Assembly (NCBI RefSeq): GCF_963921235.1
Contig: NC_086097.1
Location: 165,356,001-165,420,000, forward strand
From: Mobula hypostoma
Taxonomy: Eukaryota
DNA: 64,000 bases
Reading direction: 5' to 3'
Position 1 is the first letter of the stretch; each line of letters starts with the position of its first letter. Positions 1-58,675 of this stretch are shown piece after piece. The position numbers and the translations under genes are program-made. A model generated the notes under the pieces. It was not told the DNA's origin and made no database searches. It was given only the letters and a program-made list of their open reading frames with translations.

Positions 1-907
1 TATTGGAATAGAGGGATATAGATCATGTGCAAGAAATAAGTTTAATTTAACAGGTGGATGTAGAAAGAGTATTTACACTTGTTGAAAATTTAGAATTTGG
101 AACTGACTTCCCTGTATAAACCCACGTCATCTCATTAAATTACTGCAAGAAGTTGCTAAGACAGGGACACAAAAGTGGACCACATTGTATTAAAAGCTTT
201 TGTGCCATTTAACTTGGCTTTGGTTGGATAGTATTTTATCGTTATTTACCTGCCTTAAATTTTATTCATTATCTAAGAACCTTTATTTAAGTTGTATGAG
301 AATCTTCAGCCTTTCTCAGGACCAAAAGAAAAATCCACATTTCCACAACCCATTGGGAAAACTACATCCTAATTTTCTTCCAAGATGACTGAGTTATCTT
401 AAAATTATATGCCCTCACTCTTCTTCAAAGCTAGTGATATTTAGATCCTCTCTCCCCATTGCCCTACCTCCTCTATCCCCCAACACCTCTCCCTCTCCCT
501 GTATCATCCCTCCCCCTTTCCCTGACACTAATATAATACACATTCATGGAATTTGTCATTATGTTCATCCCATGAGCATGGTATTATTTTTAAGAAAATT
601 TGTAGTGCATCACTCCACGTCAAAATGTTGTGAGGTGCCATAAAAACTGAGCTTCTGAATAGCATGGTGTGAAAAACTTCCTGAATTACATACAACTTTC
701 CTCTTTGGAATGATAAGTTCCTTCCTTTTTTAACCCAGCCCTCTTGAAATGATGGTATCTTTTTGGAACTGGTGATTATTTTTCATTTGTCATGAGTGTT
801 TTTCATTCATTGCATTTTTTTAGATCATGTATTCATAAATTTTTAATGCTGTCAAATAAGCCTTGTGTATGATGTTTTTAGGATATTACATAACTTTGCT
901 CTTTTAA

Positions 908-9619: not shown

Positions 9620-10882
9620 CACAAGATCACAAGATAAAGGAGCAGAAGTAGGCCATTCAGCCCATCGAGTCTGCTCCGTGACTCCTCCATGAGCTAAACT
9701 ATTCTCCCATCTAGTTCCATTTTCTGGCTTTTTCCCCATATCCCTTGATACCCTGACTAATTAGATACCTATCAATCTCCTTAAACACTCTCAATGATCA
9801 GGCTTCCACAGCTGTATGTGGCAACGAACTCCATAGATCCTCGACCCTCTGGCTAAAAAAATTTCTCCTCATCTCTGTTTTAATTTGGTACCCTCTAATT
9901 CTAAGACTGTGGCCTCTTGTCCTGGACTCACCCACCAAGGGAAACAACCTTTCCACATCTATTCTGTCCAACCTTTTCAACATTCGAAATGTTTCTATGA
10001 AATGCCCTCTCATTCTTCTATACTCTAATGAATACAGTCCAAGAGCCGACAAACACTCCTCATATGTTAGCCTCTGCATTCCAGGAACCATCCTCATAAA
10101 TCTTCTCTGAACTCTCTCCAACATCAGTACATCCCTTCTAAGATAGGGGGCCAAAAACTGCACACAGTATTCCAAATGAGGTCTCTCCAGTGCCCCATAG
10201 AGCCTCATCAACACCTCCTTACTCTTATACACTATTCCTCTTGAAATGAATGCCAACATAGCATTCACTTTCCTTACCGCCGATCCAGCTTGGTAGTTAT
10301 CCTGCATGAGGACCCCCCCCAAGTCCCTTGGCACTTCCGATTTTTGAATTTTCTCCCCAACTAAATAATAATCTGCCCGATTATTTCTTCTTTCAAAATG
10401 TACAACTGTACATTTCTCACCATTGTATCTCATCTGCCATTTCTTTGCCCACTCTCCTAAACTGACCAAATCTCTCTGCAACCTTTCCGTTTCTTCAACA
10501 CTTCTTGCTCCTCTACCTATCTTGGTGTCATCCGTAAACTTAGCCACAAAACCATGTAATCCAGAATCTAAATCATCGATATACATTGTAAAAAGAAGTG
10601 GCCCCAACACCGACCCCTGCGGAACACCACTAGTAACCGGCAACCAATCAGAATAGGATCTCTTTATTCACACCCTTTGCTTTCTGCCTATCAGCTAATG
10701 CTCCACCCATTCCAATATCTTTCCTTAATTCCATGGGCTCTCATCGTATTAAGCAGCCTCTTATGCAGCACCGTATCGAAGGCCTTTTGAAAATACAAAT
10801 ACACAACATCCACAGACTCTCCCTTGTCAATCTTATTTGAGATTACCTCAAAAAATTCCAATGGGTTGGTGAGGCAGGAAAT
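9620..10882 (-). mobile_element. CR1 LINE, 5'-truncated (RT C-terminal half and 3' UTR), inserted in an older + strand CR1 tail
   Basis: ORF 9798-10643 with VPQGSVLGPLLF, FTDDTK and RPHLEYCVQF. The host CR1 tail resumes at ~10883. Confidence 0.9.
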
Positions 10883-11025
10883 TCAGACATTTAGGAAACT
10901 CCTAGATAGGCACATGGAGGAAACAAAAATGAAGGGCTTTGTGAGAGAAAAAAGATGAATTGATCTTGGAGTAAGTTAAAAGGTCAGCACAATATTGTGG
11001 GCTGAAGGGCTCGTACTGTGCTGTA

Positions 11026-11137
11026 CCTTATTAGCCTGAAAATGGTCATCTCATTGGATCTCAGAGGCTAAGCAGGCTCAGGCCTGGTTAGTACTTGGAT
11101 GGGAGACAGCCTGAGAATACCAGATGCAAAAATAAAA
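11026..11137 (+). pseudogene. 5S rRNA retro-pseudogene with A-rich tail
   Basis: GATCTCAGAGGCTAAGCAGGCTCAGGCCTGGTTAGTACTTGGATGGGAGACAGCCTGAGAATACCAGATGC aligns to the 5S internal control region. Both 5S termini are missing, and AAAAATAAAA follows. Confidence 0.85.
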
Positions 11138-11154
11138 TTGTTCTGTGCTATTTT

Positions 11155-12050
11155 AGGTAGAGGGACAGGTAGTTTTAAAGAAGTAGAGAAGTTACAGAAG
11201 GCCTTAGACAGATTAGGAGAATGGGCAAAGAAGTGGCAAATGGAATACAGTGTCAAGAAGTGTGTGGTCATGCACTTTGGTAGAAGAAATCAAAGGGAAG
11301 ACTATTTTGTAAATGGAGAGAAAATTCAAAATACTGAGGGACTCGGGAGTCCTTGTGCAAGATTCCCTAATGGTTAACTTGCAGGTTGGGTCTGTGGTGA
11401 GGAAGGCAAATGCGATGTTAGGATTCATTTCAAGAGGACTAGAATGTAAAAGCAAAGACGTAACGTTGAGGTTTTATACAGCACAAGTAGGGCCTCGATC
11501 GGAGTATTATGAGGGGTTTTCGGCCCCTTATCTTAGAAAGGATTGCTGAAACTGGAGAGGGTTCAAGTTCACGGAAATGATTCCAGGATTGACTGTCTTG
11601 TCATATGAAGAGCGTTTGATGGCTCTGGGTTTGTATTCACTAGAATTTAGAAGAATGAGGGGTGACCTAATTGAAACTTATCAAATGGTGAAAGGCCTTG
11701 ATAGAGTGGACGTGGAGAGGATGTTTTCTATGGTGCGAGAGTCTGAGACTAGAGGACACAGCCTCAGAATAGAGGGGTGTCCTTTGAGAGCAGAGATGAG
11801 GAGGAATTTCTTTAGCCAAAAGAGTAGTGAATCTGTGGAATTCTTTGCCACAGGCAGCTGTGGAGGACAAGTTTTGATGTACATTTAAGGCAGAGGTTGA
11901 TAGATTCTTGACCACTCAGGACATGAAGGGATACATGGAGAAAGCAGGAGATTGGGGCTAAGGGGAAAATTGGATCAACTATGATGAAATGGTGCAGCAG
12001 GCTCAATGAGCCAAATTGCATAATTCTGCTCCTATATCTTATGGTCTTTT
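11155..12050 (+). mobile_element. CR1 LINE 3' fragment
   Basis: Frameshifted ORFs 11099-11888 (LDRLGEWAKKWQM, KANAMLGFISRG, RRMRGDLIE, RGHSL); tail ...cctatatcttatggtct. Confidence 0.88.
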
Positions 12051-16797: not shown

Positions 16798-17013
<216 letters not shown>

Positions 17014-17908: not shown

Positions 17909-19843
17909 CAGGTCCACAATCCCTTATCCGAAATCCTTGGGGCCAGTTATATTTTGGAATTCAGAATTTTTCGGATTTCAGACCCCCCCCCCCATACCAA
18001 AAAACACATATACTGAAGTCCCTTATTTAATCTGTCTCAATACAGTGGACTTTAGGACCCAGCGGCACACCAGACCTACACACATCCTCTTATATACTTT
18101 AAATCATCTCTAGATTACTTATAATACCTGTGTACATACATCTATTGATGCTTCTGGACACATCTTCAGTGATGTTCCTGGAATCATTCGGGTGTTTCGG
18201 GTCTTTCAACGTCATACAACCTCCTCCAGGTGACCCAGCCGGGGCTGATCAGACCCCAGCTTGTGTCCAGATGGCTAGCTACTTATGACTCCATGGCTCC
18301 CCTCTTTTGAGCCACAGCCATCTTGAGGCCCTCTCTGCTGCATCGGTGGTACTGCGGATGGCTCTCCTCTTCCCCTGTCCCTCGATGCCCAAAATGCTGA
18401 AGGCTCTAACTAAAGAACAGGCTATGAATCCCCTACAACCAACCTCCACTAGGACAATAATTGTTGTCATGGCTTGCAGCTTCCTATCAACCCCTGTCTT
18501 CACCATTGCCTCCAGAATTTGGTCAACATCTTCATCAAACTGCTTCCACAGTGAAGTCATGTTAGCTGCAGGCCATTTGATCCGCCTCCTGTTAGACTTC
18601 ATGTTAGAGGGATTAGTTTGCAACACTTGGAGGTTCTGGGCACTATGGGGTGACTCCGGGCCTGGCCCCTCCTTCGTCTCACCAGGTTGGATACCTGCGC
18701 GCTGTGCTGCTTCTGCTCCCACCAAACACTTCATCCTCGCTTGGTGGATCTTCAAGCCACGATCGTTCTTGCAGATTTTGCCACATGCACACTGCTTCCT
18801 CATCATCATTTGTTCATTGCCTAGGTCTGATTTTGTTGTGTCCATCCAGCTGAGGTGCTCATCCTCCCCCACTCTCGGGCACCCCTGGGGGAATCTTTCC
18901 CTTAGATTCATTGTAGCTTTTGTGGGGGTCCTCCTCTCAGAGGACACAGATTGGGTTGCCAGCCTGTTCTGCCCCTGTTGCCGTCTCTCTGGGCTGTCAC
19001 TGACTTTCCAGTCGTCACCACTCTTTTTGCGGTTGTCACCCAGTCTTTCCTGGTTGTCACTGATGAACTCGGGGTGTAAGCTGTGTAAATACATCTATTG
19101 ATGCTTCTGGACACATCTTCAGTGATGTTCCTGGAATCATCGGGTGTTTCGGGTCTTTCAACATCATACAACCTCCTCCAGGTGACCTAGCCAGGGCTGA
19201 TCAGACCCCAGCTTGTGTCCAAATGGCTAGCTTAATACAATGTAAATGCTATGTAAATAATTGTTATACTGTATTGTTTATGGAATAATGACGAGAAGAA
19301 ATTTTATTTCCAACAAAAACATTCAATAAAACATATACAGCTTCAAACAAACCAAATCAAACACATGGTGAATGACTTATTGGAATAAATGTAGAACGTC
19401 ACTGTCACTCTCACTATAAAACTTCAGTACCTTGTCTTTCTGTTTATTTAGGTCATATACAGTGGTAGCTCTGACACTATTTTCTTCAGTAAGATGCCGC
19501 ACAGACCCACCACGATCAGGCTTCTGCAATAACTCCACTTTCTGCGTTATTGATAATGATAGCTGCTTCCTTCTCTTTTTCTCATTGTTACCCATAGGGG
19601 TATCTGCAGCTCTTTTTGACATTTTGACAGTGAAATTAAACACAAAGTCAACAGTGAACACAAAATATCAGCGAACAGCAAATGCACGTGTAACCAGTAT
19701 GAGCGCTGAGCCACAACTGACGTCTGGTGGCCTCTGCTAGTGCTGCCACATCACACCTGAGTGACGTCAGCTGTTAGCGAAAAAAACTTCGGTCTTCGGA
19801 GCTTTTTGGATTTCAGAATTTCAGATAAAGGAATGTGCACCTG
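17909..19843 (-). mobile_element. Non-autonomous Tigger/pogo (Tc1-mariner) DNA transposon, interrupted by a HERO-like insertion
   Basis: Imperfect ~28-bp TIRs (CAGGTCCACAATCCCTTATCCGAAATCC / CAGGTGCACATTCCTTTATCTGAAATTC) with TA on both sides (17907-17908, 19844-19845). ORF 19377-19661 (MSKRAADTPMG...KRRKQLSLSITQKVELL) is a CENP-B-type HTH N-terminus. Confidence 0.85.
18128..19232 (-). mobile_element. Internally deleted HERO/Zebulon-like (restriction-like endonuclease clade) non-LTR retroelement with ~150-bp direct terminal repeats
   Basis: Repeats at 18128-18280 and 19081-19232. ORF 18279-19094 joins CACGKICKNDRGLKIHQARMKC and RIKWP to VEVGCRGF...AAERASRWLWLKR, with no RT. Confidence 0.8.
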
Positions 19844-20223: not shown

Positions 20224-20529
<306 letters not shown>

Positions 20530-40324: not shown

Positions 40325-40420
40325 ACACACATCAAAGTTGCTGGTGAACGCAGCAGGCCAGGCAGCATCTTTAGGAAGAGGTACAGTCGACATTTCAGGC
40401 CGAGACCCTTCGTCAGTCCT
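40325..40420 (-). mobile_element. Short Penelope-derived hammerhead-containing insertion
   Basis: The minus strand reads CTGACGA-AGGGTCTCGGCCT-GAAATGTC-GACTGTACCTC; nearly identical to 9057-9150. Confidence 0.8.
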
Positions 40421-40897
40421 GAGTATGTGCCTTTGGGCTTCTGTATCTCCTTCCTGATGGTAACAATGAGAAGAGGGCATGCCCTGAATGATGGGGGTCC
40501 TTAGTGATGGACATAGCCTTTCTGAGCCACCGCTCTTTGTAGATGTCTGGCATACCACGGAAGCTAGTGCCCAAGATGGAAAGCTGAAATTTTATGACTT
40601 TCTGTAGCTTCTTTCAGTCCTGTGCAGTAACCACCCACCTCCCCAACCAGGCAGTGATGTACTATCAAAATGTTCTCCATGGTACATTTATGAAAATTTT
40701 TGAATGTTTTAGTTGACAAAACAAATATCTTCTAATGAAATATAGCCACTGTTTTGCCGCCTTTATGGCTGCATTGATATGTTGGGACCAGGTTAGATCC
40801 TCAGAGATTTTGACACCCAGGAACTTGAAATTGCTCACTATCTGCACTTCTAATCCCTCTATGAGGATTGGTTCACGTTTCCTCGACTTACCTTTCC
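40420..40897 (-). mobile_element. Rex1/Babar-like LINE fragment
   Basis: VSNFKFLGVKISEDLTWSQHINA...QWLYFIRR in ORF 40665-40976. Confidence 0.75.
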
Positions 40898-41164
40898 TGT
40901 TCTGTCGTTTTAATGCCATGATGATTCCATTCTTCAATAGATCTTGATTTCTGTGTGGTAATATTGGCCCATTCAATTCACTTAAGCCATTCTATAGCAA
41001 ATGAATTATGGGAAATTAGGAGTTAATGCTTATGATTGAAACCCAACAACAGCATCTGGGTCTTGGGGAGCAGTTCGAGATGTTGAACGTCAAAACAAAA
41101 TACTTGAGCTACCTTCCAAGTGATTTTTGATCTCTTAAGGTCAGTGTCTGTCTCTTCTATAATC

Positions 41165-41717
41165 ATGGGGTTGTCCATTGTCGTCGTCGATGAAGACCTC
41201 GACACCATGATGGTGTTGAGACTAGCGCTTGATTTGGATTTAAGTGAGGGAGAGTTGCGCAGCGTCAGCCTCACTCTCTCTTCCCAATTCCCATTTGGAT
41301 CCAGTGGCAAGACAAGAGTCGAGACGACTGGAGATGAGATTAGGCACAGTGGATGACCAGGACATCATCTGTGTCATGTCGTGCTCTACACGTTCCACGA
41401 CGCTTGCAGAGACCGCCTTCTTGACCGTTGGACCTTCCATTGGTCTCGTCTGCTCAATCTGCTGGAGTCTGTCTTCACATGCTGGGATAGACAACTCCCT
41501 ATTTCACTGAGGGTTTGAGACCTGTCGGCTACCGTCGCCTGGTTTAGCCGGCTTGTCGAAGCCTTTGCCCAGGGTGTGGCTGCTGTCGCATGCAAACAGC
41601 TATGGGGAGCCACAGGTGAGAGCTGAGTGCCAGGTGGGGACCAAAAGTGGACTAACTGCCTCGAAAAGGACACAACATGTTCCCCCACCAGAGGTGCTAC
41701 CCCTCCCTGACACCCCA
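41165..41717 (-). mobile_element. Non-autonomous bipartite RTE-like element (RTE 5' UTR plus short 3' tail)
   Basis: TTGGATTTAAGTGAGGGAGAGTTGCGCAGCGTCAGCCTCACTCTCTC...CCAGTGGCAAGAC...GACGACTGGAGATG resembles RTE/MAR1-type UTR sequence as recalled. GC/CpG-rich, with no coding remnant. Confidence 0.55.
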
Positions 41718-42837
41718 TATAGCACATGTGAACCCTTCAATTAAAATGTTGATCTTTGCAAAGGAGTCTCTATGTCTCTATCCCCAGAGTTCAGCAGTAC
41801 AATATTTTTACATTCCTCAAAGTTACTTTATAAAATGTTTACCATGATGATCTCTTCAAATGTACAGAGTTATGAATTCAACAGAGAAAATTGAAGATAT
41901 TTGTTAATCTACAAACATTTGTACAAAGAACAGTAATATTGGTGGAAAGTATCGCAGGTTACTGGTAAAATCCTAATCTATCCAATATACAGTAGATGTT
42001 TACATACAATTCTTAAAACGTGAAAAACTTTCTAATGCTAATTTAACCCTCATTTAGATTGACGTGCTTAATCTGAATTAGTTGTGGCTATAAAACTGGA
42101 CCTCCAAAACCCATATTACCACAGATATCTCACCAATCAAACAATCCATGGATGATGTGGAGAAGGGTACTTCCAAAAAAGAAAATGTTCTGGCTCCATA
42201 TGGTGAATATGGTCAGCATTTGAAGGAAGCACACCCCATGAATAAAAGGTGCATTCATAGAAGGACTGATGATAAAGGAATGGCATTGGAGAGGGTCCAG
42301 AGCAGGTTCATGAAAATGATCCCTAAAAATGAAAGGATTAATACACAAGAAGCATTTGATGGCTGTGGCCCTCTACTTACTTGAGTTCAGAAGAATGAGG
42401 GGGATCTCATTGAAACCTGTGGAATATTGAAAGGCCTAGGTATGTGGAGAGGCTGTTTCCTATAGTGGGGGAATCTAGGACCAGAGGGTACAGGCTCTGA
42501 ATAGAAGGATATCCCATTAGAACAGAGCTGAGGAATTGATTTTGTGGAAAAATGATGCTGCCTTTATGAGGTATTGTGCCTTGAAGATGTCCTGAATGCT
42601 GGGGATACTGGTGCTCATAATGAAGATGACTGAGTTTTCAAATATCTGAGGCACCCCCGGTACCAGGCGGTAATGCAGCCAGTTAGAATGCTCTCCATGT
42701 TTCACCTTGTAAGAATTTAGAGTCCGAGTCACCAAACAAGCCCTTCAGTTACCATGTCCTTTCTTGCTATCAATTACTCCACATTAAACCCACCCACCAG
42801 CATTTAATCTGTAGTTCAAAGTACATTTATTATCAAA

Positions 42838-44205
42838 ATCAGAATTAGGTTTATTATCACTGGCATGTGACGTGAAATTTCTTAGCAGCAGCAGTTCAAT
42901 GCGGTACATAATCTAGCAGAGAAAAAAAAATAAAATGATAATAAATAAGTAAATCAATTATGTATATTCAATAGATTAAAACAACGTGCAAACACAGAAA
43001 TACTCTTTTTAAAAGTGAGGTAATGTCTGAAGGTTCAATGTCCAGTTAGGAATTGGATGGCAGAGGGGAAGAAGCTGTTCTTGAATCACTGAGTGTGTGC
43101 CTTCAGGCTTCTGTATCTCCTACTTGACAGTAATAGTGAGAAAAGTGCATGCCCTGGATGCTGGAGGTCTTTAATAATGGACGCTTCCTTTCTGAGACAC
43201 CACTCCCTAAAGATGTCCTGGGTACTTTGTAGGCTAGTGCCCAAGATGTAGCTGACTAGATTTACAATCTTCTGCAGCTTCTTTTGGTCCTGTGCAGTAG
43301 CCCCTCCATACCAGTCAGTGATGCAGCCTGCCAGAATACTCTTTACAGTACAACTATATAAGTTTTTGAGTGTATTTGTTGACATGCTAAATCTCTTCAA
43401 ACTCCTAATAAAGTATAGCCACATTCTTGCCTTCTTTATAACTTCTCTCCACTTCTGATCCCTCTATGAGGAATTGGTATGTGTTCCTTTGTCATACCCT
43501 TCCTGAAGTCCACAATCAGCTCCGTCTTACTGATGTTGAGTGCCAGGTTGTTGCTGTGGCACCACTCCACTAGTGGGCAGGCATATCTCACTCCTGTACA
43601 CCCTCTCATCACCACCTGAGATTCTACCAACAATGGTTGTATTGTCAGCAAATTTATAGATGGTATTTGAGCTATGCCTAGCCACACAGTCGTGTAGATA
43701 GAGAGTAGAGCAGTGGGCTAAGACACACCCCTGAGGTGCGCCAATGTTGATCGTCAGTGAGGAGGAGAAGCTATCACCAATCTGCACAGATTGTAGTCTT
43801 CCGGTTAGGAAGTCGAGGATCCAATTGCAGAGGGAGGTACAGAGACCCGGGTTCTGCAACTTGTCAATCAGGATTGTGGGAATGATGGTATTAAATGCTG
43901 AGCTATAGGCGATAAACAGCACCCTGACATAGGTGTTTGTGTTGTCCAGGTGGTCTAGAGCCATGTGGAGAGCCATTGAGATTGCGTCTGCCATTAATCT
44001 ATTGTGGTGATAGGAAATTGCAATGGGTCCAGGTCCTTGCTGAGGCAGGAGTTCAGTCTAGTCATGACCAACCTCTCAAAGCATTTCATCACTATCGATG
44101 TGAGTGCTACCGGGCTATAGTCATTAAGGCAGCCCACATTATTCTTCTTAGGCACTGGTGTAATTGTTGCCTGTTGGAAGCAAGTGGGAACTTCTACCCA
44201 CGTTA
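42838..44205 (-). mobile_element. Rex1/Babar-like LINE (RT fragments and 3' UTR), inserted in the tail of another LINE 3' UTR (~42815 / 44206-44730)
   Basis: ORFs 43086-44224: [47 protein letters not shown]. Confidence 0.88.
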
Positions 44206-45084
44206 TAATGTATACATTATACAACCTTGAGATTCATCTCCTAACAGGCAGCCATGAAACAAGGACACCCAAAAAATTAACTATTTACCTACAAACGACT
44301 AACACCCAATGTGTAGAGAGTAAAAACCACATCGTGCTCTTAAAAAAAATAAAAGAACCCATAAAAAATAGACACTTGAATGCCCAATGTGCAATGATTT
44401 AAAAAAACATGCAAACAGTAACCACAAGCAAAGAGTGTTTTTGAACTGAAGTCCACAAAGAGCGTCAGCGCAGAGCCGAGCAAACGCCGTGGAGCAGTGA
44501 TCTGAACTGGCCCGCACCTTGCCTTGGGCCCCAGCACCCTGACCTTTTCAATCTGTTCTGGCACTTAACTCTGTCTGAACAACCAGTCCTGCCACTTGGA
44601 TATGCTGGATTTTGCCGCCTCGATTCCACCTGGAAATCTCTGTACAAACATTGTGTTGAGCCCCTTTGAAACACTCTGGGGCCTAGACCCCACAGCTTTG
44701 ATTCGGCCTGTGCCTGACCTTTCACACTTTTCCACGCTCTAAAACTTGGCAGAGTGCTTGTCTACATACTTTTGACCAGATTCCAATCACTCCATATTCT
44801 TCCTTAGATCTCCTCCATACCTCTGTTCCGAAACCTATCATAACCCTTGACACCTCTTAAGGGATTAAAAAAGATTCCTACTGTCTACACTGTCTATATT
44901 CTATGTAATTTTGTATGCTTTTTAATAAAGCCAACAGTCCAAACAGTACAAATCCAGTCTGTTTCATCTCTCCTCATAATTGAAATGCCCAAACTCACGC
45001 ATTATCCTCTTCATCTTCTCCACTCATCTTAGACATTTGGAGAATGGGCAAAGAGGTGCCAGAGGGAATATCATGTAGGAGACA

Positions 45085-47728: not shown

Positions 47729-47972
47729 TGTATGGTCATGCAGTTTGGTGGACTATTTTCTAAATGTGGAGAAAATTCAAAAATCAGTGGTGCGAAGGGT
47801 CTCAGGAGTCCCTTTGCAGAATTCCTTAAAGGTTAACTTGTAGGTTGAGAATGCAATATATTAGCATTCATTTCGAGGTGACTGGAGTTGAAAAACAATA
47901 ATGTAACACCGAGGCTTTATAAAGCAATGGTCAGTCTGCACATGGAGTATTGTGAGCAGTTTCAGGCCCCTG

Positions 47973-50900
47973 TTAGAACCATAGAACACTACAGCACAGA
48001 AAACAGACCATTTGGCCCTTCTAGTCTGTGCCAAAACATTATTCTGCTAGTTCCATTGACCTGCATCCAATCCATAACCCTCCAGACCTCTCCCATCCAC
48101 ATATCTATCCAATTTATTCTTAAAACTTAAGAGTGAGCCTGCACTTACCACATCAGATGGCAGCTCGTTCCATACTCCCACCACTCTCTGAGTGAAGTTC
48201 CCCCTAAACCTTTCCCCTTTCACTCTAAAGCCATGTCCTCTCATATTTATCTCTCCTAATCTAAGTGGGAAGAGCCTATTTGCATTTACTCTGTCTCTAC
48301 CCCTCAATTTTGTAAACCTCTATCAAATCTCCCCTCATTCTTCTACACTCCAAGGAATAAAGTCCTAACCTGTTCAATCTTTCCCTGTAACTCAACTCCT
48401 GAAGACCCGGCAACATCCTAGTAAATCTCTGTACTCTTTCAATCATGCTAATATCCTTCCTATAGTTAGGTGACCAGAACTGTACACAATACTCCAAATT
48501 TGGCCTCACCAATGTCTTATACAACCTCCCCATAACATCCCAACTCCTATACTCAATACTTTGATTTATGAATGCCAGGATGCCAAAAGCCTTCTTTACA
48601 ACCCTGTCTACCTGTGACACCACTTTCAGGGAATTATGTATCTGAACTCCCAGATCTCTTTGCTCCTCCGCATTCCTCAGTGCCCTACCATTTACTGTGT
48701 ATGTCCTACCTTGATTTGTCCTTCCAAATTGCAACACCTCACACTTATCTGCATTAAATTCCATCTGCCATTTTCTGGCCCATTTTTCCAGTTGGTCCAC
48801 ATCCCTCTGCAAGCTTTGAAAGCCTTCCTCTCCATCCACAACGCCTCCAATCTTAGTGTAATCAGTAAACTTGCTGATCCAATTTACCACATTATTATCT
48901 AGATCATTGATATAAACAACAAACAACAATGGTCCCAGCACAGATCCTTGAGGCACACCACTAGTCACAGGCCTCCAGTCTGAGAAGCAATCATCCACTA
49001 CCACTCACTGTCTTCTCCCACACAGCCAATTTCGAATCCAGTTTACAACCTCTCCATGGATACCTAGTGTCTGAACCTTCTGAACTAACCTCCTATGTGG
49101 GACCTTGTCAAACGCCTTACTGAAGTCCATGTAGACAACATCCACAGCCTTTCCTTCATCTACTTTCTTGGTAACCTCCTCGAAAAACTCTACAAAATTC
49201 ATTAAACACAATCTACCACACACAAAGCCATGCTGACTATCCTTAATCCGCCCTTGACTGTTCAAATACTTGTATATCCGATCTCTCAGAACACCTTCCA
49301 ATAATTTACCTACTACTGATGTCAGGCTCACCGGCCTGTAATTACCTGGTTTACTTTTGGAGCCTTGTTTAAACAACGGAACAACATAAGCTACCCTCCA
49401 ATCCTTCGGCACCATACCCGTGGCTAAGGACATTTTAAATATTTCTGCCAGGGCCCCTGCAATTTCTACAATAGTCTCTCTCAAGGTCCGATGAAATATT
49501 ATGTCAGACCCGGGGGACTTATCTACCTTTATTCGCTGTAAGGCAGCAAGCACCTCCTCCTCTTTAAACTCTATATGTTCCATGACACTACTGCTTGTTT
49601 CCCTTCCTTCCATATACACTCTGCCAGTTTCCTGAGTAAATACTGATGCAAAAAAACTGTTTAAGATCTCCCCCATCTCGTGAGGCTCCACACATAGATG
49701 ACCACTTTGATCTTCTAGGGTACCAATTTTGTCCCTTACTATCCTTTTACTCTTAATATACTTGTAGAAACTCTTCGGGATTACCTTCACATTATCTGCC
49801 AAAGCAACCTCATGTCTTCTTTTTGCCTTCCTGATTTCCTTCTTTAGTATTTTCTTACATTTTCTATACTCTTCAAGTACCTCATTTTTTCCTTATTGCC
49901 TATACCTGCTATATAACTCTCTCTTTTTCTTAACCAGATCGCCAATATCCCTTGAAAACCAAGGTTCCCTATGCCTGTTAACTTTGCCTTTAATCCTGGC
50001 AGGAACATGCAAACTCTGCACTCTCAAAATTTCACCTTTGAATACCTTCCACATACTGATCACATCCTTGCAAGAAAACAACTTATCCCAATCCACTCTT
50101 CCTAGATCCTTTCTCATTTCCTCAAAATTGGTCCTTCTCCAATTTAGGACCAGACCTATCTTTATCCATAATTAACTTGAAACCAATGACATTATGGTCA
50201 CTGGACCCAAAATGTTCACCTACACATACGAGGGGTGATTGATAAGTTCGTGGCCTATGGTAGAAGCAGTCAATTTTAGAAAACCTAGCACTTTTATTTT
50301 TCTTACATTTACACACTTAGTCCAGCGATTGTGGCACATACGGATCCCTTCTTTGTAGAAGTCGGCATCTTGGACCTCCAGAAGTGGTCCACAGCAGGGG
50401 TGATTGATAAATTCGTGGCCTAAAGGAGATGAGGAGAAACTTCAAACTTTCTTCATTTTCACTCAAAGAGTTGAACTGCACATGCATGTAATGAGAGCTG
50501 TATAACTCATCTCCTGCTACCTTAGGCCACAAACTTATCAATCACCCCTGCTGTGGACCACCTGGAGGTCCAAGGCGCTCTTGTTACATGCACGTGCAGT
50601 TCAACTCTTTGAGTAATAATGCAGAAAGTTTGAAGTTAATAACTCATCTTCTTCTACCTTAGGCCACGAACTTATCAATCACCCCTCGTACTTCTGTCAC
50701 CTGACCTGTCTGGTTCCCTAATAGGAGATCAAGTATTGCATCCTCTCTCATTGGTACCTCTATACCCTGTATATTGATTTAGAAAACTTTCCTGAACACA
50801 TTTGACAAACTCCACGCCATCTAACCCTTTCACAGTGTGGGAGTCACAGTCAATATGTGGAAAGTTAAAATCCCCTACTGTTACAACTTTCTGTTTCTTA

Positions 50901-52714
50901 CATCGATCTGCTATCTCTCTACAGATTTGCTCCTACAATTCTCTCTGACTATTGGGCGGTCTATAATACAACCCTATTAGTGTGGTCACACCTTTCCCGT
51001 TCCTCAGCTCCACCCATATGGCCTCTATAGACAAGCCCTCCGGGCTGTCCTGTCTACACACAGCTGTGACATTCTCCATGACTAGTAATGCCGCTCCTCC
51101 TGCTTTCATCCCTCCCCCTCTATCACGTCTGAAACAACAGAACCCCGGAACATTAAGGTGCCAGTCCTGCCCCTCCTGCAACCAAGTCTCACTAATAGCA
51201 ATAATGTCGTAGTCCCACGTGTCAATCCACGCCCTAAGCTCATCTGCCTGATCTACAATACTTCTTGCATTGAAATAGATGCAACTGAGAACATTTCTAT
51301 TATGTACAAACCTTTGATTACTGTCTATACATGCAGTCCTTGCATGACCTTTATCCTCCTCCACCTCACTACCTGCTGTAACACTCTGGCTCCTCTCCCC
51401 CTGCAAATCTAGTTTAAACCCTCCTGAGCAGAACTAGCAAACCTACCTACAAGGATGTTAGTCCCCCTCCAATTCAGGTGAAACTGTCCCGTTGGAACAG
51501 GTCCCACCTTACCTGGAACAAGGCCCAATTGTCTAGAAGCATGAAGCCCTCCCTCCTGCACCATCTCCTTAGCCACGTATTTAGCTGCATTATCTTCCTA
51601 TTTCCAGCCTCAGTAGCACATGGCATGGGTAGCAATCCTGAGATTGCAACCCTGGAGGTCCTGTCCTTCACCTTTGCACCTAACTCCCTAAACTCTCTTT
51701 GCAGGACCTCCTCTTCCTTCCTACCCACTCCATTAGTCCCTACATGGACCACAACATCTGGCTGCTCACCCTCCCTCCTGAGAATACCGAGAACTTGATC
51801 CAAGATATTGCGGACCCTGGCACTGGGGAGGCAACAGACCATCCAGGATTCTCGATCTCTCCCACAGAACCTCTTATCTGTCCCCCTAACTATCGAATCC
51901 CCTATCACTACTGTTCTCCTCTTTTCCCTCCTTCCTTTCTGAGCTGAGGGTACAGTCTTGGTGCCAGAGACATGACCACTACAACTTGTCCCTGGTAGGT
52001 CGTCCCCACCAACAGTATCCAAAACAGTATACTTATTATTGATGGAAATGGCCACAGGGGTGCTCTGTTCATTCTGTCTATTCTCCTTCCATCTCCCGAC
52101 AGTCACCCAGCTACCTGCCTCCTGACTTTTAGGGGTGACTATCTCCCTGAAACTCCTGTCTATTTCTGCCTCTGCCTCACGAATGTTCCAAAGTTCATCC
52201 AGCTCCAGCTCCAGTTCCCTAACTCGGTTTGTCAGGAGCTGCAGCTGGATGCACCTTTTACAGGTGTAGTCATCAGAGGCGATTGCGCTGTCCCTGACTT
52301 CCCAGATACTGCATACGGAGCACTCAACTGCCCTAACTGCTGCTTCTATTATCTACTCCTAAGTTAATTAAATTCATTAAAGGAACTTACCCGGCCTTAC
52401 CTCACTGGGAGCAGGCTCGTCCTCAGCCTCTGCTCGCCGAAGCTTCTCGAGCCAAAGTCTCAAAGCTCCACTCCTACTCCAAGCCACTCACACACTGGCC
52501 GCTCCTCTTCAGTTACCCCTCCTTTTATTTGTCCCTGCCAATTATCTCAAGTACTCACTCCCTCTGATCAACTAATCAACACTCTGTTTAACCTCTCAGT
52601 CGCCCTCCACGCTCCTTTTTAAAGCACACTCACCTGAGCTGCTTCCCAGCACTCAGCGCTCGCTCTCCCAAGCCCCTTGCTCCTCCTCCTGCTGTGATCG
52701 TTCCTCAATCACAC
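47973..52714 (-). mobile_element. Near-full-length CR1 LINE: 5' UTR, ORF1 (Cys-knuckle, coiled coil, SGNH esterase), ORF2 (APE and RT), 3' UTR; inactivated
   Basis: ORF1 has CSVC...CKRC, LELELDEL, VIGDSIVRG and VVVHVGTN (~51440-52350). ORF2 has YFNARSI, IAISETW, YYRPP, SDHN, DFSKAFDKVP and VPQGSVLGP. Stops and frameshifts are present; (catagaa)-type tail at ~47974-47990. Confidence 0.92.
50229..50688. mobile_element. mariner-type MITE (460 bp) with TA target duplication and internal extra TIR copies
   Basis: TA-CGAGGGGTGATTGATAAGTTCGTGGCCTA ... TAGGCCACGAACTTATCAATCACCCCTCG-TA; the CR1 ORF2 is continuous across it. Confidence 0.9.
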
Positions 52715-53207
52715 TTAGAAAAAGGTGTGCTGGTATTGGAGAAGGTCCAGAGGAGGTTCACAAGGTTGATTCTGGGAATGAGTAGGTTAACATATGAAGA
52801 TTGTTTGATGGCTCTGGGCCTGTACTCATTAGTGTTTAGAAGAGTGAAGGGGGATCTCATTGAAACCTATTGAATATTGAAAGGGCTAGATAGAGTGGAT
52901 GTGAAGAAATTGTTTTCCATTGTGGGTGAGTCTATGTCCAGAGGGCACAGCCTCAGAGAATAGAGGGAGATCCATCTAGAACAGAAATCAGGAGGAATTT
53001 CTTTAGTAAATTTGTGGAATTCATTGCCACAGATGGCCATGGAGGCCAAGTTATTGTATATGTTTTAAGTGGCGGATCAGGACTTCAAAGGTCACAGGGA
53101 GAAGGCAGGAGAATGGAGTTAAGAGGGATAATAAATCAGCTATGATGAAATGGTGGAACAGACTTAATGGGCCAAAGGACCTAATTCTACTGAAATGTCT
53201 TAAGGTC
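52715..53207 (+). mobile_element. 3' end of a host CR1 whose other pieces are at ~45028-45080 and ~47729-47972
   Basis: The three pieces are colinear with the + strand CR1 copy at 11155-12050. Confidence 0.8.
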
Positions 53208-56639: not shown

Positions 56640-58675
56640 CTTCCTCGAGCCCACCACCCCTACCCCATTACTCTCGCCCCTTTTCCCCTCATTTCTCCCC
56701 TCCCCTCCCTTTCTTCTCACCCCTCCCCCTCCCTTTCCCTTCACCCCCTCTCCCTTCCTCCCCTCACCCCCATCCCCTCATCCCCTCTCCCTTCCTCCCC
56801 TCCATCCCCTCATCCCCCTCCCCTCCATCCCCTCATCCCCCTCCCCTCCATCCCCTCATCCCCCCTCACCTCCCTCCCCACCCTCCTCTCCTCTCCCCCA
56901 CCCTCCTCTACTCTCCCCCTCCCCTACCCCTCTTCATCGCTCCTCTCCTCTCCCCTACCCCTCCTCTCCTCTCCTCCCTACCCCTTCTCTCCTTTACCCT
57001 CCCCTACCCCTCCTCTCCTTTCACCTACCTCTCCCCTCCCCCTCCCCTTCCTCTCCCCTCCCCCTCCCCTTCCTCTCCCCTCCCCCTCCCCTTCCTCTCC
57101 CCTCCCCCCTCCCCTCCCCTCCCCTTCTCCTCCCCTCCTCTCCTCACCCCACCCCTCCTCTCCTCTGCCCCTCCCCTTCTCCCCTCTCTCCCTCCCCGCT
57201 CTCTCCCCCCTCCCCTCCCCCTCTCCTCTCCCCTCTCCCCTCCCCTCCCCTCCCCCTCTCCCCTCCCCCTCTCCCCTCCCCTCCCCCTCTCCCCCCTCCC
57301 CTCCCCCTCTCCCCTCTCCCCTCCCCCTCTCCCCTCTCCTCCCTTCTCTCCCCCCTCCCTTCTCTCCCCCTCCCTTCTCTCCCCCTCCCTTCTCTACCCT
57401 CTCTCTTCTCTACCCCCCTCCCTTCTCTACCCCCTCCCTTCTCTCCCCCTCCCTTCTCTCCCCTCCCCTCTCTCCTCTCTCCCCTCTCTCCCCTCTCCCC
57501 TCCCCTCCCCTCCCCCTCTCCCCTCCCCCTCTCCCCTCCCCTCCCCCTCTCCCCCTCCCCCTCTCCCCCTCCCCTCTCCCCCCTCCCCCTCTCCCCTCTC
57601 CCCTCCCCCTCTCCCCTCTCCTCCCTTCTCTCCCCCCTCCCTTCTCTCCCCCTCCCTTCTCTCCCCCTCCCTTCTCTCCCCCTCCCTTCTCTCCCCCTCC
57701 CTTCTCTCCCCCTCCCTTCTCTACCCCCCTCCCTTCTCTACCCCCTCCCTTCTCTCCCCCCTCTCTACCCCCTCCCTTCTCTCCTCTCTCCCCTCACTCC
57801 CCCTCCCCTCCCCTCTCTCCCCTCTCTCCCCCCTCTCCCCCTCCCCTCCCCTCTCTCCCCTCCCCTCTCCCCCCTCCCTTCTCTCCCCCCTCCTACCCCC
57901 TCCCTTCTCTCCTCTCTCCCCTCACTCCCCCTCCCCTCCCCTCTCTCCCCCCTCCCCCTCCCCTCCCCTCTCTCCCCTCCCCTCTCTCCCCTCCCCTCTC
58001 TCCCCTCCCCTCTCTCCTCTCTCCCCTCACTCCCCCTCCCCTCCCCTCTCTCTCCTCTCTCCCCCTCTCCCCCTCCCCTCCCCTCTCTCCCCTCCCCTCT
58101 CTCCCCTCCCCTCTCTCCCCTCCCCTCTCTCCTCTCTCCCCTCACTCCCCCTCCCCTCCCCTCTCTCTCCTCTCTCCCCCTCTCCCCCTCCCCTCCCCTC
58201 TCTCCCCTCCCCTCTCTCCCCTCCCCTCTCTCCCCTCCCCTCTCTCCTCTCTCCCCTCACTCCCCCTCCCCTCCCCTCTCTCTCTCCCCCCTCTCCCCTC
58301 CCCTCCCCTCTCTCCCTCCCCTCTCTCCCCTCCCTCTCTCCCTCCCCTCTCTCCCCCCCTCTCTCTCTCTCCCTCACTCCCCCTCCCCTCCCCTCTCTCT
58401 CCTCTCCCCCTCTCCCCTCCCCTCCCCTCTCCCCTCCCCTCTCTCCCCTCCCCTCTCTCCCTCCCCTCTCTCCCTCCCCTCTCTCCTCTCTCCCTCACTC
58501 CCCCTCCCCTCCCCTCTCTCTCTCTCTCCCCCTCTCCCCTCCCCTCCCCTCTCTCCCTCCCTCTCTCCCTCCCCTCTCTCTCTCTCTCCCCCTCTCCCCT
58601 CCCCTCCCTCTCTCCCCTCCCCTCTCTCCCCTCCCTCTCTCCCTCCCTCTCCCCTGCACCCTGCACCCCCCCACC
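56640..58675. repeat. ~2-kb homopyrimidine (C/T) low-complexity tract with internal higher-order duplications
   Basis: Almost only C and T on the + strand. Recurring units CCCTC, CCCCTCT, the 15-mer CCCTCCCTTCTCTCC and blocks marked by CTCACTCCCC. Confidence 0.97.

Follow-up and report, generated by a model that had tools for sequence, protein, structure and literature searches.

Between positions 18128 and 19232 of the DNA analysed here, a 64,000-nucleotide stretch of the Mobula hypostoma genome (NC_086097.1, positions 165,356,001 to 165,420,000; hereafter the window), two direct repeats enclose an open reading frame (ORF) made of the two ends of a HERO-type retrotransposon protein, and the question raised by this locus is whether such a unit is a miniature retrotransposon in its own right or the remains of a larger one. 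A sequence-only reading had proposed a "pseudo-LTR" mini-retrotransposon, of which the origin, the layout, the loss of reverse transcriptase (RT) and the repeat boundary are upheld below, whereas the novelty of the repeat, the family and the selected protein are not. The best explanation, given a probability of roughly 0.55 as a whole, takes the element for a copy of a HERO/Zebulon-type LINE that has decayed and lost its interior while keeping the ordinary R-5'UTR-ORF-R layout of its clade, the terminal repeat R containing a type-SGC hammerhead core. The deleted copy, taken alone, is ordinary.

Anatomy and origin of the deleted element

The two repeats (18128-18280 and 19081-19232) are 96% identical over 153 columns (E 4e-67), their mismatches being five substitutions and one 1-base indel. 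A minus-strand open frame of 271 codons (19094-18279) runs between them, and the repeat begins at its stop codon. As had been claimed, this frame is uninterrupted and its stop codon marks the repeat edge, but its initiation point lies inside the 5' repeat, and the methionine that matches the start of related proteins is at 18911, giving an ORF of 210 amino acids. Read on the minus strand, the element consists of the 5' repeat R (19081..19232), a full 152-nt copy of the 3'UTR that begins at the position of the ORF stop codon; a 169-nt HERO 5'UTR (18912..19080) joined directly to the end of R; an N-terminal ORF part (18453..18911) that represents approximately residues 1-150 of the parent protein and includes the RIKWP segment; an in-frame deletion junction (18450..18452); a C-terminal ORF tail of 56 residues with the stop codon (18279..18449); and the 3' repeat, which is the 3'UTR itself (18128..18280, 153 nt). 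This order agrees with the 3'UTR-5'UTR/ORF-3'UTR layout first proposed and with the Zebulon-type partial tandem, in which the 3' end of an element lies directly upstream of its own 5' end. The unit between the two R copies (one repeat spacing) is 952 nt, and no second copy of the element was present in the 64-kb window.

The N-terminal ORF part is 70% identical to residues 2-150 of the related protein P0001 and has a C-x-C-x12-H-x5-C spacing, labelled zinc-finger-like by eye; it matches no Pfam family, and its AlphaFold model (pLDDT 54.6) did not resolve a fold. The C-terminal piece is the last 56 residues only, downstream of the nuclease catalytic motifs, and its closest counterpart is the tail of P0131 of Mobula hypostoma (91% identical). 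Alignment with P0001 stops at residue 150 and resumes at residue 1047, which confirms the in-frame fusion, as the figures given above confirm the repeats and the 271-codon frame. About 896 codons encoding the RT, CCHC and nuclease core have been lost at this junction, and no Pfam RT domain is found, as the earlier claim of RT loss required; nor is there the RT followed by a PD-(D/E)xK nuclease in one ORF that defines an autonomous HERO element. Mobilisation in trans, also proposed previously, holds in the sense that a helper would be needed if the element ever moved after the deletion.

The HERO/Zebulon origin itself is borne out by protein relatives and by phylogeny. The element's protein groups with HERO-type ORFs, and a Pfam RT domain is present in nearly all of the 58 long relatives. 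In a tree built on the two remaining protein segments only, and with no outgroup from other clades of the R2 group, the remnant is placed among fish HERO-type proteins (5-row group, support 100/98; 20-row group including the Tetraodon polyprotein AAN12398, support 99/96). AAN12398 and BAC82599 are taken here to be the Tetraodon Zebulon/HEROTn element; its names and partial-tandem structure were reportedly described by Bouneau et al. in 2003 and by Kojima and Fujiwara in 2004. HERO-like retrotransposon fragments (L065-L069) also turned up in the records of four bacterial genomes, where they sit on short contigs and most probably represent eukaryotic contamination; no further 3'UTR was found in those four genomes.

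The element lies antisense in an intron of an ankyrin-repeat gene, presumably ANKRD12-like (upstream exon 16858..16998, plus strand; next exon near 20226-20361), inside a minus-strand Tigger/pogo-like DNA transposon remnant (17909..19843) that served as insertion target. This remnant has TA flanks, terminal inverted repeats identical at 22 of 26 positions, and a CENP-B_N-like frame (19377-19667; E 3e-4, just below the Pfam cut-off). A perfect 6-bp direct repeat, TAATAC, adjoins both flanks of the element (18122..18127 and 19233..19238) and has the appearance of a target-site duplication, which in LTR elements and TRIMs is 4-6 bp long; however, it need not be one, because Tigger elements carry this hexamer twice at the insertion point, and it may have been doubled already in the Tigger target. 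Elsewhere in the window are a C/T-rich, low-complexity tandem repeat of about 2 kb (56695-58655) and several old repeat copies, 65-75% alike (9623-12048, 40419-43439 and 47751-53207); weak RT similarity was noted at 44033-44239, in one of the old repeat copies.

The terminal repeat in related elements

A pattern scan of metagenomes returned 52 loci, 11 of them HERO 3'UTRs that are fish-type by similarity; the other 41 were dropped as chance matches of the 18-mer, and HERO was found in viral contigs at none of 12 pattern loci and none of 16 identified by protein. Seven loci have a visible 5' flank, of which two start within 3 nt of the window boundary, three inside the ORF and two inside the UTR. 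One of these, L018, reads flank, whole 3'UTR and 5'UTR in that order, with its 5' boundary 1 nt from that of the window, and its 5'UTR is 67.6% identical to the window's; the other, L012, starts 3 nt upstream of the window's 5' boundary. The recurrence of the 5' repeat boundary, expected from the initial reading, is therefore real: the boundary is at the stop codon, and L018 and L012 reproduce it to within 1 nt and 3 nt, respectively. The L012 sequence (1-128, minus strand) is a 3'UTR copy that begins at the stop codon with no ORF upstream; it would be a solo repeat or else an upstream repeat truncated where the contig stops.

The junction between R and the 5'UTR is also read through by predicted proteins. 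A search with the junction-crossing frame as query yielded 30 matches, judged by eye and drawn from gene calls that may be spliced, of which 7 continue from R into the 5'UTR, 2 contain the 5'UTR only, 2 (P0151 and P0157) were rejected as false, low-complexity matches, and the rest continue into other sequence. P0061 crosses the junction in the same register. One cluster of junction ORFs has a member on a 4,094-base ENA contig, the same size as the contig of the full-length protein P0004, and this agreement, which is one of length only, suggests that autonomous elements also carry the upstream repeat. Two further predicted proteins, P0084 and P0133, on contigs of 3.6-3.8 kb, consist of a HERO C-terminus followed by the N-terminal part, consistent with tandem or circularly collapsed units, or with a splicing artefact of gene calling.

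Thus, the terminal repeat is clade-wide rather than an invention of the mini-element, as had been supposed: L018 has the same junction, and 7 of the 30 protein matches cross it. The R-5'UTR-ORF-R layout was very probably inherited from the clade. Each R of the window is nearer to its partner (96%) than to the R of L018, and the two have in common a change in stem III that is absent from most relatives; the two ends have therefore been homogenised.

A more conservative account would make the locus a one-off Zebulon-type partial tandem, generated by a template jump and later deleted, in which R is merely a protein-binding structured 3'UTR and its hammerhead words are a relic or a coincidence. 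Template jumps are known for R2 (PMC3414825), and the single copy in the window fits such an origin, whereas random truncation would seldom place the starts of two of the seven fish loci within 3 nt of the window boundary. This account is considered unlikely, also on the RNA evidence that follows.

A candidate hammerhead core and its possible working

Type SGC is a non-circularly permuted hammerhead order, site-GAAA-CUGAnGA, according to Eckert et al. 2023 (PMC10085705), from which the block names S, G and C are taken. On the coding strand, R has GUA first, then GAAA and then CUGAAGA, which is the type-SGC arrangement, with CUGAnGA, GAAA and NUH intact; a structured RNA with a permuted hammerhead core was absent from the sequence-only reading. 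In the 5' R (all coordinates on the minus strand), block S (19160..19173) comprises a stem III strand with one mismatch, the GUA site and a stem I strand, with the predicted cut between 19167 and 19166; block G (19142..19155) comprises the helix c' strand, GAAA and a stem III strand; and block C (19109..19129) comprises a stem I strand, CUGAAGA and then the helix a' strand. The upstream structured part (19177..19220) holds helices a, b, c and d: the helix a strand (19220-19214), hairpin b (19213-19189), the helix c strand (19188-19184), of which the first base is changed in the 5' copy, and the helix d strand (19182-19177), whose partner is at 19135-19130. In the 3' R, also on the minus strand, blocks S (18221-18208), G (18203-18190) and C (18176-18156) have mismatches in stems I and III, and the predicted cut is between 18215 and 18214.

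Stems I and III pair in register at 11 of 12 positions in the 5' R and 10 of 12 in the 3' R, a pairing reached in any block order by 2 and 22 of 20,000 shuffles, respectively. The six helices (I, III, a, b, c and d) are 93.5% paired, compared with 26-46% when slid; in the fish loci, one of the two strands of stem III and of helix c was set by the search pattern. The core positions that vary among fish-type R are the two that are free in hammerheads (N7 is A, U or C; H17 is A or C), and five sequences have G-C and four A-U as the terminal pair of helix d. Across the 12 closely related sequences, some covariation was found in helices a, b and d, and none in stems I and III; only three pairs are changed on both sides, a result matched by 103 of 500 shuffles. 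The folding z-scores of R are modest (-2.4 and -1.7), and Rfam gave no family match and four chance matches. A strict descriptor, with stems I and III free of mismatches and at least five pairs each, was satisfied by 4 of 11 fish loci and by none of 1,682 window tiles; the other seven fish loci and both window copies fail it.

In none of the nine testable fish-type sequences does the canonical stem II form without a bulge, and with one (a U following A9) it still contains a U-C mismatch. The energy of stem II is -1.3 kcal/mol, against -12.3 for helix a and -4.8 for helix c, in which the stem II strands pair upstream. A bulge at that position is known in Penelope hammerheads (PMC4209133), and a natural stem II can be as short as one or two pairs (PMC3088659). 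A canonical hammerhead formed in trans between the two repeats was rejected, as stem II does not pair. Two loci that seemed to begin at the predicted cut were also set aside, L036 having its 3' flank in common with the longer L043, and L025 having an ambiguous boundary.

The weak stem II and thin covariation are what the one-off partial tandem would lead one to expect, as is the private damage in both repeats; the rarity of the block register in shuffles speaks against it, as does an independent, complete core at the distant locus L069. This locus, on a stray contig of a bacterial MAG, encodes a distant HERO-like C-terminus (32%) and has in its 3'UTR (1155-1245) a complete SGC core with stems of 4, 3 and 4 pairs; stem II, which joins blocks C and G, is the one with 3 pairs. 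When the thresholds were put at the stem lengths seen in L069, the core recurred in 0 of 10,000 shuffles and matched nothing in 808,822 background bases; judged from its sequence, it is the cleanest candidate SGC core. A trinucleotide-repeat tail follows it. The other distant locus, L068, has no SGC core.

R is, with high confidence, a conserved structured RNA, and its core is probably hammerhead-derived; the chances that it is self-cleaving in active relatives are about even. Because each window copy is damaged in a way of its own (the 3' R in stem I, the 5' R at the first helix c pair) and the stem III mismatch is common to both, the window copies themselves are, from their predicted pairing, probably poor or dead as ribozymes.

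A working scheme for the clade may be outlined on the favoured reading of a deleted copy with an inherited layout. Transcription would start near the 5' edge of the upstream R, as in the Penelope pseudo-LTR, and this would fix the 5' boundary; the upstream repeat is the likely transcription start in Penelope-like elements (PMC6765202). The downstream R would act as a handle for the RT and as the start of target-primed reverse transcription, and the hammerhead core, when ungated, would trim read-through or tandem RNA. Helices a and c may switch the candidate ribozyme off; alternatively, a, b and c may form a four-way junction without unpaired bases that replaces stem II and would supply the G-C pair under the sheared G-A pairs. 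Template jumps would renew the upstream R with sequence of the 3' end, so that the two copies stay similar, and the fusion ORF would be a by-product of the deletion-bearing copy. The observed 5' boundaries are 66 nt upstream of the predicted cut, and those copies are therefore not derived from simply cut RNA.

The two cores in direct repeat, one unit apart, also bring to mind a retrozyme-like route, in which both R would be cut, the 952-nt unit ligated to a circle, and reverse transcription carried past its start to produce the terminal repeat. Such a route would explain the exact R-5'UTR junction and the homogenised ends, and RtcB circularises the RNAs of animal retrozymes in vitro (PMC7229834); however, it requires internal priming on the circle, does not account for a 5' boundary located at the stop codon, and involves a cut in the 3' R that removes the end where most fish loci terminate. 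It is regarded as highly unlikely.

The broadest form of the favoured reading is offered tentatively and falls short of probable: across the HERO LINEs, those of rays and bony fish as well as that of a distant eukaryote, the 3'UTR would contain an active permuted hammerhead, duplicated as a pseudo-LTR, with stem II of the fish type replaced by a four-way junction of helices a, b and c or gated by them, and the window element would be a minimal, non-autonomous version that may move by way of a ribozyme-processed 952-nt RNA, perhaps a circular one. If R cuts, the whole family gains an RNA-processing route so far undescribed. If the broad form is true, the HERO 3'UTR hammerhead is a convergence on the Penelope design in a LINE with a restriction-like endonuclease, type-SGC hammerheads gain a genomic home and a vertebrate role, the odd partial tandems of Zebulon-type elements are offered a reason, and the fish-type architecture, with its stem II replaced or gated, departs from the block rule set out by Eckert et al. 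(PMC10085705).

Family status and comparison with known systems

The earlier reading had further supposed a mini-element family that keeps a small protein by selection. At the divergence seen between the repeats, 2-8% of neutral simulations yield an ORF that is open and in frame, which is mildly in favour of youth or selection. The tail of the ORF has 5 private amino-acid changes in 57 codons, and with the three nearest proteins as a stand-in for the parent, tail pN is 3.8% of non-synonymous sites compared with about 1.6% per repeat copy, so that selection on the protein is unsupported; a conserved-column test found deviations of 3/57 and 0/40, inside the range of relatives. The tail looks neutrally decayed, the fusion ORF reads as a by-product, and a functional fusion protein is most improbable.

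The deletion junction is present in none of 130 related proteins (58 longer, 52 of similar length and 20 shorter), which leaves the proposed family unsupported, and neither form of the ORF is present in a collection of 15 billion entries, protein-level tests being weak for an unannotated ray repeat. These absences and the private changes in the tail weigh against a multi-copy, non-autonomous mini-HERO family, SIDE-like, with a fixed deletion and terminal repeats and moved in trans, its protein being selected in the strong form; both cis-required ends are intact, SIDE families are known for R2 and CR1 (PMC3414825 and PMC6740152), and the low neutral expectation for the open frame would also favour it, but this ORF was chosen for being open. 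The 12-member P0060 cluster hints at other short HERO derivatives. On balance such a family is improbable. A multi-copy family without protein function, which would be compatible with the favoured reading of a deleted copy, is rather unlikely. The P0060 cluster (with P0134-P0144) comprises twelve Logan ORFs derived from the N-terminal region of a different HERO family, and eight of them stop at one common position. Their contigs measure 946-2,536 bases, and three of these (946-952 bases) are near the unit length of the window element; the cluster may represent a short HERO family of its own.

Taken singly, HERO elements, SIDEs, partial tandems and SGC hammerheads have all been described before; what is new is the candidate permuted hammerhead in a HERO repeat, and the mini-element family is unproven. 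No paper linking a hammerhead to HERO or Zebulon was found in a library without most subscription journals, and no ribozyme is described for the HERO clade in the literature searched. R2 and several other LINEs have HDV-like ribozymes at the 5' end, and Penelope has hammerheads in its pseudo-LTRs (PMC6765202).

The window element shares with HERO-clade elements the N-terminus, the C-terminal tail, a copy of the 3' end upstream and a non-specific target, the last as reported for HEROTn (PMC3636483), and differs from them in having no RT, CCHC or nuclease core. Its 5' and 3' ends are joined by an internal deletion, as are the LINE ends in the SIDEs of R2 and CR1 (PMC3414825, PMC6740152); those are shown as families, and the SIDEs of R2 are described with a 5' HDV-like ribozyme and without a terminal repeat, unlike the window element. 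With type-SGC hammerheads (PMC10085705) R shares the block order, the conserved core letters, the register of stems I and III and a short linker from stem I to the G block; it differs in that the canonical stem II of the fish type is weak, with both strands pairing with upstream sequence, and in that helix d is placed unlike their I-II helix. In the text consulted, the type-SGC set is listed from RNA of soil, spruce and freshwater, and a connection to retrotransposons comes up in the references only.

Retrozymes (PMC7229834) and TRIMs are likewise small non-autonomous units between direct repeats, and in retrozymes the repeat contains a ribozyme, here a candidate; the window element differs from both in being made of a LINE's own UTRs and ORF ends, without LTR hallmarks. 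By eye, the coding strand of R starts with AG rather than having TG...CA ends, no TGG-led site follows the 5' R, and the purine run nearest to R is coding and about 18 nt away. Penelope-like elements (PMC4209133, PMC6765202) have in common with the window element direct repeats from partial tandems and a hammerhead motif, here a candidate one, in the repeat; their RT and nuclease are different, and so are the motifs, which for the most part are of a minimal type I that is taken to work as dimers, unlike the candidate SGC core described here.
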